NCBI RefSeq assembly: GCF_003334305.1
Contig: NZ_QOWS01000072.1
Source: Escherichia coli
GTDB taxonomy: Bacteria; Pseudomonadota; Gammaproteobacteria; Enterobacterales; Enterobacteriaceae
Direction: 5' to 3' (one strand)
DNA: 649 nucleotides
The notes under the pieces were generated by a model. That model was not told where the DNA came from and searched no databases. It saw only the letters and a program-made list of their open reading frames with translations. Shown in pieces: positions 3-649 of the stretch; position 1 is the stretch's first letter; the number at the start of each line of letters is the position of its first letter. Position numbers and translations under genes: made by a program.

Positions 3-25
3 GGTAATGCTGCCAACTTACTGAT
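3..25 (+). repeat. IS1 left terminal inverted repeat (IRL), 23 bp
   Basis: GGTAATGCTGCCAACTTACTGAT; differs from the IRL of K-12-type IS1 as I recall it (GGTGATGCTGCCAACTTACTGAT) at one position (4th base G->A). The partner IRR is outside the window, so the inverted-repeat pairing cannot be shown here. Confidence 0.85.
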
Positions 26-40
26 TTAGTGTATGATGGT
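9..40 (+). promoter_or_regulatory. Probable insA promoter (pIRL) overlapping the IRL, which is also the InsA binding/autorepression region
   Basis: A -10-like hexamer TATGAT at 32..37 lies just upstream of the insA RBS and start; in IS1 the insA promoter is known to lie partly within IRL. The -35 element is not clearly identifiable by eye, so boundaries are approximate. Confidence 0.35.
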
Positions 41-57: not shown

Positions 58-333
58 GTGGCTTCCATTTCCATCAGATGTCCTTCCTGCTCCGCTACTG
101 AAGGCGTGGTGCGTAACGGCAAAAGCACTGCCGGACATCAGCGCTATCTCTGCTCTCATTGCCGTAAAACATGGCAACTACAGTTCACTTACACCGCCTC
201 TCAGCCCGGTAAGCACCAGAAAATCATTGATATGGCCATGAATGGCGTCGGATGTCGCGCCAGTGCACGCATTATGGGCGTTGGCCTCAACACGGTTTTA
301 CATCACTTAAAAAACTCAGGCCGCAGTCGGTAA
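58..333 (+). CDS. insA: IS1 InsA protein (91 aa): transposition inhibitor / transcriptional repressor and N-terminal DNA-binding part of the InsAB' transposase
   Basis: ORF 58..333 with GTG start and TAA stop at 331..333; translation [37 protein letters not shown]... carries a C-x2-C-x20-C-x2-C zinc-finger motif (C8, C11, C32, C35) and a C-terminal HTH-like segment ([30 protein letters not shown]). Near-identical to recalled InsA with about 7 substitutions (e.g. V4I, S7R, D15E, T52K). Confidence 0.93.
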
Positions 334-649
334 CCTCGCGCATACAACCGGGCAGTGATGTGATTGTCTGCGCTGAAATGGACGAACAGTGGGGCTACGT
401 CGGTGCTAAATCACGTCAGCGCTGGCTGTTTTACGCGTATGACAGGATACGGAGGACGGTTGTGGCGCACGTCTTCGGTGAACGCACTCTGGCCACACTG
501 GAGCGTCTTCTGAGCCTGCTGTCGGCCTTTGAGGTCGTGGTATAGATGACGGATGGCTGGCCGCTGTATGAATCACGCCTGAAGGGAAAGCTGCACGTTA
601 TCAGCAAGCGTTACACTCAGCGCATTGAGCGACATAATCTGAATCTGAG
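252..649 (+). pseudogene. insB: IS1 insB frame (transposase catalytic part), interrupted by an in-frame TAG at 543..545 and 3'-partial at the window edge
   Basis: ORF 252..545 ([64 protein letters not shown]...) matches recalled InsB ([27 protein letters not shown]...). It ends at TAG 543..545, where canonical IS1 has TGG (Trp) in the motif DVVIWMTDGW. The same frame then continues open over 546..647 as [34 protein letters not shown], matching canonical InsB. Classed as pseudogene only because of the internal stop; a sequencing error or suppression are alternatives. Confidence 0.7.
307..315 (+). promoter_or_regulatory. Programmed -1 ribosomal frameshift (slippery) site TTAAAAAAC linking insA to the insB frame
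   Basis: TTA-AAA-AAC in the insA frame (codons 307-309, 310-312, 313-315; A6 run 309..314 followed by C315) is the established IS1 A6C frameshift motif. The -1 frame reads CTT AAA AAA CTC (L K K L), which continues into the InsB-like frame. The insA stop (331..333) lies 16 nt downstream. Confidence 0.85.

Follow-up and report, generated by a model that had tools for sequence, protein, structure and literature searches.

What does an in-frame stop codon followed at once by a start codon mean in the transposase gene of an insertion sequence: a fresh lesion, a translational device or an ordinary pseudogene mutation? The case lies in the window, the whole 649-bp stretch of Escherichia coli DNA that was analyzed, in which TAG at 543-545 directly precedes ATG at 546-548. 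As the first-pass annotation had described, both codons are in the insB' frame (ORF 252-545), which stays open to the window edge. Taken together, the results make it very probable that the window is a copy of IS1F with a known amber mutation (Trp163 to stop) that disables insAB', that is, an ordinary pseudogene lesion in a persisting, non-autonomous copy.

The window is almost wholly IS1 insertion sequence and holds the first 647 bp of one element of the IS1F isoform, which starts at window position 3 with GGTAATG (GGTAATGCTGCC...). Alignment gave 2 mismatches in 647 positions with K-12 IS1F and 64 in 647 with IS1A, and this near identity to the one and clear distance from the other assign the window to the IS1F isoform. 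The source element as a whole is not of pure IS1F type: it is F-type at 63 of 63 informative sites up to 638 and IS1A-type at 7 of 7 sites from 650 to its end, beyond the window, and is therefore an IS1F/IS1A mosaic with a crossover at 638-650, at the window's end and within L001 4638-4770. The complete element (L001, 4003-4770) has the 768-bp size and the imperfect ~23-bp terminal inverted repeats of IS1 and aligned end to end without gaps to both K-12 IS1F and IS1A, with flanks that diverge at both element ends. It also has the IS1 architecture of insA, an A6C programmed frameshift and insB' in the -1 frame (Table 1), the insA product being a repressor with a zinc ribbon and a helix-turn-helix (HTH). 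When the stop was restored to Trp, the protein matched the IS1 transposase profile NCBIfam NF033558 (transpos_IS1) with 243 bits against a cut-off of 100, and Pfam placed Zn_ribbon_InsA at residues 1-36, HTH_Tnp_IS1 at 43-86 and DDE_Tnp_IS1 at 102-232. The promoter-like site inside the left inverted repeat occupies what we take to be the position of the known IS1 promoter (P-IS1) for insA/insAB'. Two properties of a complete, autonomous IS1 were missing. The insAB' frame is interrupted by the TAG, and the source copy has no flanking direct repeat of 8-9 bp; the missing duplication fits later rearrangement or recombination, and membership in IS1 stands. Rfam gave no match to the window at E<=1. 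The window was found at 100% identity in 7 complete E. coli genomes and at 99% or more in thousands.

Table 1. Features of the window (positions in the 649-bp window).
Feature	Position	Strand	Evidence or remark
Left terminal inverted repeat (IRL)	3..25	+	Alignment to K-12 IS1F begins here; left flank diverges at once
Promoter-like site inside IRL	10..37	+	Consensus scan, 9/12 matches
insA, GTG start, 91 codons, TAA stop at 331-333	58..333	+	ORF; Pfam Zn_ribbon_InsA and HTH_Tnp_IS1
A6C slippery motif AAAAAAC, programmed -1 frameshift from insA to insB'	309..315	+	Sequence; PGAP 'programmed frameshift' on the same element
insB' frame before the stop, InsAB' residues 86-162, first half of DDE_Tnp_IS1	312..542	+	
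SD-like GAGGT, within codons GAG GTC (Glu-Val)	531..535	+	10 nt upstream of ATG 546
Amber codon (TGG to TAG), Trp163 of InsAB' and Trp98 of the InsB ORF	543..545	+	PGAP 'internal stop'
Rest of insB' from the conserved Met164, second half of the DDE domain	546..649	+	transpos_IS1 profile positions 156-199

In the reconstructed frameshifted product, the TAG is codon 163 of 232 in insAB' and codon 98 of the InsB ORF. Codon 163 is TGG (Trp) in IS1A and the following ATG is the conserved Met164 codon, and the stop is a single G-to-A change of the conserved Trp163 codon. InsAB' translation no longer includes the part from 546 to 649, and in the two source genomes (L001 and L069) the frame after the stop runs undisrupted for 69 codons to the normal TAA. 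The stop and the start adjoin because Trp163 (TGG) precedes Met164 (ATG) in all IS1 isoforms. Among the 93 single-base substitutions that can create a nonsense codon in insAB', three fall directly before an ATG; the juxtaposition is mildly coincidental: it follows from the Trp-Met dipeptide and is neither designed nor a new translational device.

The stop is not peculiar to this copy. K-12 IS1F carries the identical TAG and its insB7 (b4576) is annotated as a pseudogene, RefSeq PGAP labels these copies 'programmed frameshift; internal stop', and the 97-aa truncated ORF and the 69-aa tail ORF are each present in at least 994 contigs in public protein collections (for example, UniProt Q9X2T0); annotation has therefore already recorded the feature. 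With the stop in the K-12 annotation and flagged by PGAP in thousands of genomes, it carries little weight as a discovery. Thousands of independent assemblies agree on this base, and artefact or sequencing error was rejected on that ground. A literature search on insB7 returned nothing relevant; the original description of IS1F is reportedly that of Umeda & Ohtsubo 1991. K-12 IS1F (MG1655 4518472-4519239; insA7 b4294, insB7 b4576) has the same IRL, insA, A6C motif and TAG as the window. It differs from the window in its junctions (fecI and yjhU in K-12; an antiporter gene and an IS600 remnant around the window), in lacking InsA R82H and in having H34P and S143L, which the window lacks, and the last ~120 bp of the source element, beyond the window, are IS1A-type, unlike those of K-12 IS1F. 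The consensus IS1 elements IS1A and IS1E share with the source element the 768-bp architecture, the frameshift-dependent transposase and the 69-aa C-terminal sequence, whereas IS1A has TGG at codon 163, lacks an SD-like GAGGU before Met164 and diverges from the window by ~10% of nucleotides. IS1A is autonomously mobile (PMC12428005).

The first-pass annotation had also claimed that the codons of 546-647 differ from canonical IS1 at synonymous positions only, and had read this as a signature of purifying selection on the InsB C-terminus and hence as a sign that the stop is recent. The observation itself was borne out. An ungapped codon comparison with K-12 IS1A showed 8 synonymous and 0 non-synonymous differences, and the examples quoted (TCA/TCC, GTT/GTA and CGT TAC ACT/CGA TAT ACG) were all among the eight. 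Beyond the window the frame is likewise free of disruptions and non-synonymous changes, and the 69-residue tail protein is that of IS1A. The reading put on the pattern held in part. The dN/dS was 0.12 for insA, 0.146 for 336-542 and 0 for 546-647; the region before the stop is equally constrained, so a contrast between the two sides of the stop is missing. All eight synonymous differences are common to intact IS1F copies, indicating that they were inherited from the functional IS1F lineage and predate the stop. The low dN/dS is thus real, but the selection it reflects acted on functional IS1F elements after they parted from IS1A and not on this copy once it had the stop; between IS isoforms, dN/dS is uninformative on the state of an individual copy.

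The same holds for the age of the stop. A one-step change with the rest intact downstream, next to TGG alleles that persist, agrees with a lesion not followed by long decay, but the codon pattern cannot date it. Intact alleles a single base away still segregate, and compared with the ~10% divergence between IS1A and IS1F the stop is therefore young. It is not recent in this copy, however. The direct evidence on its age is the allele distribution. K-12 IS1F has the identical TAG and so do at least 2,304 E. coli records, with three haplotypes or more and no fewer than six junctions, some of them on plasmids, which shows that the stop is old and widespread enough to be carried by K-12 and thousands of other strains. 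Variation within the set of TAG copies (8 non-synonymous and 6 synonymous changes, including InsA H34P, R82H and N86K and InsB S143L) looks relaxed, but the 8:6 ratio is statistically indistinguishable from the 11:6 polymorphism among intact copies (Fisher p=0.72; p=0.07 against the between-isoform ratio), and as a test for dating the stop it is underpowered and confounded by recombination.

The ancestral state was assessed by a one-genome-per-species scan for the local 29-mer with A or G at the critical base, which returned 57 stretches. In the 10 species other than E. coli, all 56 matches read TGG; they were in Mixta, Siccibacter, Klebsiella, Kluyvera, Pantoea, Yersinia and one candidate-phylum MAG contig. 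The sole TAG was in the 547-bp contig00190 of Archangium violaceum Cb vi76 (L031), and its flank is the exact yjhU-side flank of K-12 IS1F (GACCATGTTTAT), so this match is almost certainly E. coli K-12 contamination of the myxobacterial assembly. Perfect target-site duplications of 7-10 bp flanked 23 of 49 full-length TGG copies, identifying TGG as the active, ancestral form, and none of 10 full-length TAG copies. An allele census of complete E. coli genomes, based on the best match per record plus about 25 sampled copies, counted at least 2,304 replicon records with the exact 81-mer in its TAG form and 2,903 with the TGG form. TAG was rare on plasmids (26 among the best 5,000 plasmid records).

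Intact IS1F-type elements (WP_225379934.1 of strain 203740, and copies in Mixta, Siccibacter, Klebsiella and plasmids) are 1-13 substitutions away from the window and have the same 8 synonymous differences. Unlike the window, they have TGG and encode the full 232-aa InsAB', and about half of them have 7-10 bp target-site duplications, indicating recent transposition. An intact copy at malM (L062) differs from K-12 IS1F at the TAG/TGG base alone. The malM-sopA copies (L062 and L077) have the K-12 haplotype apart from TGG, including InsB S143L, and are flanked by a 9-bp duplication (GAAATGAAG); another intact IS1F with InsB S143L (L079) has a clean target-site duplication of CATTTGTG. The intact form has therefore transposed.

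Two further observations concern TGG copies outside Escherichia. Mixta sp. Marseille-Q2659 and Mixta mediterraneensis contain dozens of near-identical IS1F-like TGG copies per genome (L007-L050), many with 8-10 bp target-site duplications, which is a recent expansion of IS1F outside Escherichia. The candidate-phylum match is an enterobacterial IS1F-like TGG copy in a 2.7-kb Candidatus Nanosynbacter (Saccharibacteria) MAG contig (L060), which suggests mis-binning or contamination.

In E. coli, the stop is tied largely to one locus. The junction between fecI-ykiE and the left end of IS1F was found in 2,598 of 5,426 genomes, and all 8 of the best TAG matches that were listed and could be cross-checked lie at the fecI-ykiE junction; a single insertion next to the ferric-citrate operon is therefore the ancestor of most TAG copies. 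At the orthologous fecI-ykiE locus, with the same left and right flanks, TAG and TGG alleles both segregate. TAG was found at the fec locus in E2865, 300709, 503025, AR_0162 and K-12 (L003, L066-L068 and L072), the K-12 copy having only the left flank in common and yjhU on its right, and TGG was found there in six genomes retrieved through their intact InsB protein (L074, L076 and L080-L083). At least three haplotypes carry TAG at this locus, and all four gametes are present for the site pairs 158/544 and 544/679, which indicates recombination; recurrent mutation or reversion is much less probable. The IS copies at the fec locus differ by 0-8 pairwise differences per 768 bp and the adjacent 1.5 kb of fecIR by 1-5, which fits neutral drift and/or conversion. 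In two of the TAG copies (L066 of E2865 and L067 of 300709), C315A turns the A6C motif into seven A and causes InsA N86K.

The window itself comes from another locus, where the element has a basic amino-acid/polyamine antiporter gene on one side and an IS600 remnant on the other (L001 and L069). TAG was also found at yedJ/hchA (L002), on an Enterobacter mcr-10 plasmid (L070), on an O128:H27 IncF plasmid (L071) and, in a decayed fragment, on an hly plasmid (L073). A 'TC' dinucleotide to the left of IRL was seen in the first three TAG copies and vanished as a pattern with more copies. The junction between the antiporter gene and IS1 was present in 448 genomes. The orthologous antiporter copies of CFT073, 300709 and CFSAN064036 (L084-L086) have TGG, a 2-bp deletion of the AT of ATG 546 and a 6-bp deletion at 636-641, and two of the three have an IS1A-type tract at 347-416. 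As these copies combine TGG with deletions, the TAG tract was probably imported to the window's locus. The rare change G302A (InsA R82H, in the HTH region) was shared, among the sampled copies, only by the source-locus copies and one fec-locus TAG copy (L068 of 503025). We infer that neither a fresh mutation nor a simple insertion placed the TAG tract at the antiporter locus, and that it came from another IS1 copy through recombination or gene conversion.

The consequence of the stop for the transposase can be predicted from the restored protein. InsAB' is cut at residue 162, in the middle of DDE_Tnp_IS1, while the zinc-ribbon/HTH DNA-binding part and InsA are kept. The familiar DDE signature, hTDxG...Y followed by E-x-x-N, predicts that the lost part contains both the second Asp (D166 of MTDGW) and the Glu of RIERHN; the DDE motif of IS1 is reportedly the subject of Ohta et al. 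2002. An element whose InsAB' is truncated within the catalytic domain would thus be unable to make its own transposase. A PDB sequence search with the restored InsAB' gave no meaningful homologue, and a single-sequence AlphaFold2 model of it had a pLDDT of 41, too poor for fold comparison, with a strand/helix order compatible with an RNase-H-like DDE fold.

Several other readings of the junction were weighed. A recent private nonsense mutation of this copy, with the InsB C-terminus still under purifying selection, would agree with the TGG of the orthologous antiporter copies in CFT073, 300709 and CFSAN064036, with the 100% match of the window in only 7 genomes and with the lack of non-synonymous changes downstream. 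It is nevertheless very unlikely, since at least 2,304 records share the identical TAG with K-12, the synonymous differences are common to intact copies and older than the stop, and the rare G302A together with TAG is shared with the fec-locus copy of 503025, pointing to import and not to de novo mutation. A live but attenuated element, in which read-through or suppression of UAG would give a trickle of full-length InsAB' and the stop would serve as an extra brake, would suit an allele that is very common and an ORF that is otherwise intact. The abundance, however, is explained by linkage to the fec island, and TAG copies have no target-site duplications. Full-length product would also require both the frameshift and read-through, and the product of the two efficiencies would be vanishingly small. 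Given in addition the lack of native mobility (PMC12428005), the chance that this reading is right is close to negligible.

Translational reinitiation at ATG 546, which the first-pass annotation had raised as speculative, deserves closer attention. Bacterial termination-reinitiation junctions combine an adjacent stop and start with an upstream SD-like element, as the window does. The GAGGU at 531-535 forms an anti-SD duplex of -6.3 kcal/mol, and no ATG in the window is preceded by a stronger one; the corresponding IS1A site reaches -2.8 and the site upstream of insA -4.0. The adjacent codons thus have a usable ribosome-binding signal. In contrast to operon couplings, the window junction arose when a nonsense mutation hit the interior of a single domain, and its parts pre-exist in intact alleles: the ATG and GAGGT are in all intact TGG copies and hence did not evolve in response to the stop. 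The SD-like GAGGU makes reinitiation conceivable in mechanical terms, but it stays a speculation in view of the GAGGU of intact copies, the immobility of K-12 IS1F and the lack of duplications around TAG copies. A further step would be a split transposase, in which GAGGU-aided reinitiation at the AUG yields a 69-aa peptide that restores some activity together with InsAB'(1-162). Such an arrangement would give meaning to the adjoining stop and start, to a -6.3 kcal/mol pairing with no counterpart in IS1A, to a 69-aa tail identical to that of IS1A and to the presence of TAG copies at several junctions, but it is extremely unlikely: the GAGGU and ATG are both found in intact copies, the break falls inside the DDE domain, only rare frameshifted ribosomes reach the site, tail changes such as S143L have accumulated, 0 of 10 TAG copies bear the target-site duplication that is the footprint of simple insertion, and K-12 IS1F is immobile alone (PMC12428005). 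More broadly, it is most unlikely that the amber allele is not simply dead and acts either as a two-piece InsAB' made by reinitiation or through InsAB'(1-162) as an inhibitor; if true, such a two-piece or inhibitor role would help explain why TAG IS1F is so common in E. coli.

Under the preferred reading of an IS1F copy disabled by the amber codon, the TAG copy would be inherited mainly with the fecIRABCDE island, would be shuffled among haplotypes and IS1 copies by homologous recombination or gene conversion, and would be mobile only with InsAB' provided in trans by another IS1. The analysis shows the identity and distribution of the mutation, the TAG/TGG polymorphism at an orthologous locus, the mosaic structure and the missing target-site duplications, whereas the loss of catalytic residues, spread through gene conversion and trans-mobilization in nature are inferred. 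Published experiments are consistent with this scheme. K-12 IS1F showed no detectable transposition alone (PMC12428005). With InsAB' over-expressed in trans and the consensus copies IS1A and IS1E absent from the strain, IS1F was the most often mobilized of the remaining copies and accounted for 44% of 48 sequenced insertions (PMC12903888). Both of these 2025 experimental papers put the immobility of K-12 IS1F down to amino-acid mismatches, and a text search of the two found no mention of a premature stop in IS1F insB (PMC12428005 and PMC12903888). The amber codon is by itself a concrete reason for the immobility of K-12 IS1F. The analysis adds that a nonsense and an intact allele segregate at one fec-linked site, while intact copies of the same haplotype elsewhere have target-site duplications and hence have transposed.

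The IS1F isoform has also been inactivated independently. In E. coli O157:H7 PV15-279, an IS1F-type copy (L061) has TGG at codon 163 but a GAA-to-TAA change at InsB codon 45, equivalent to window position 384.
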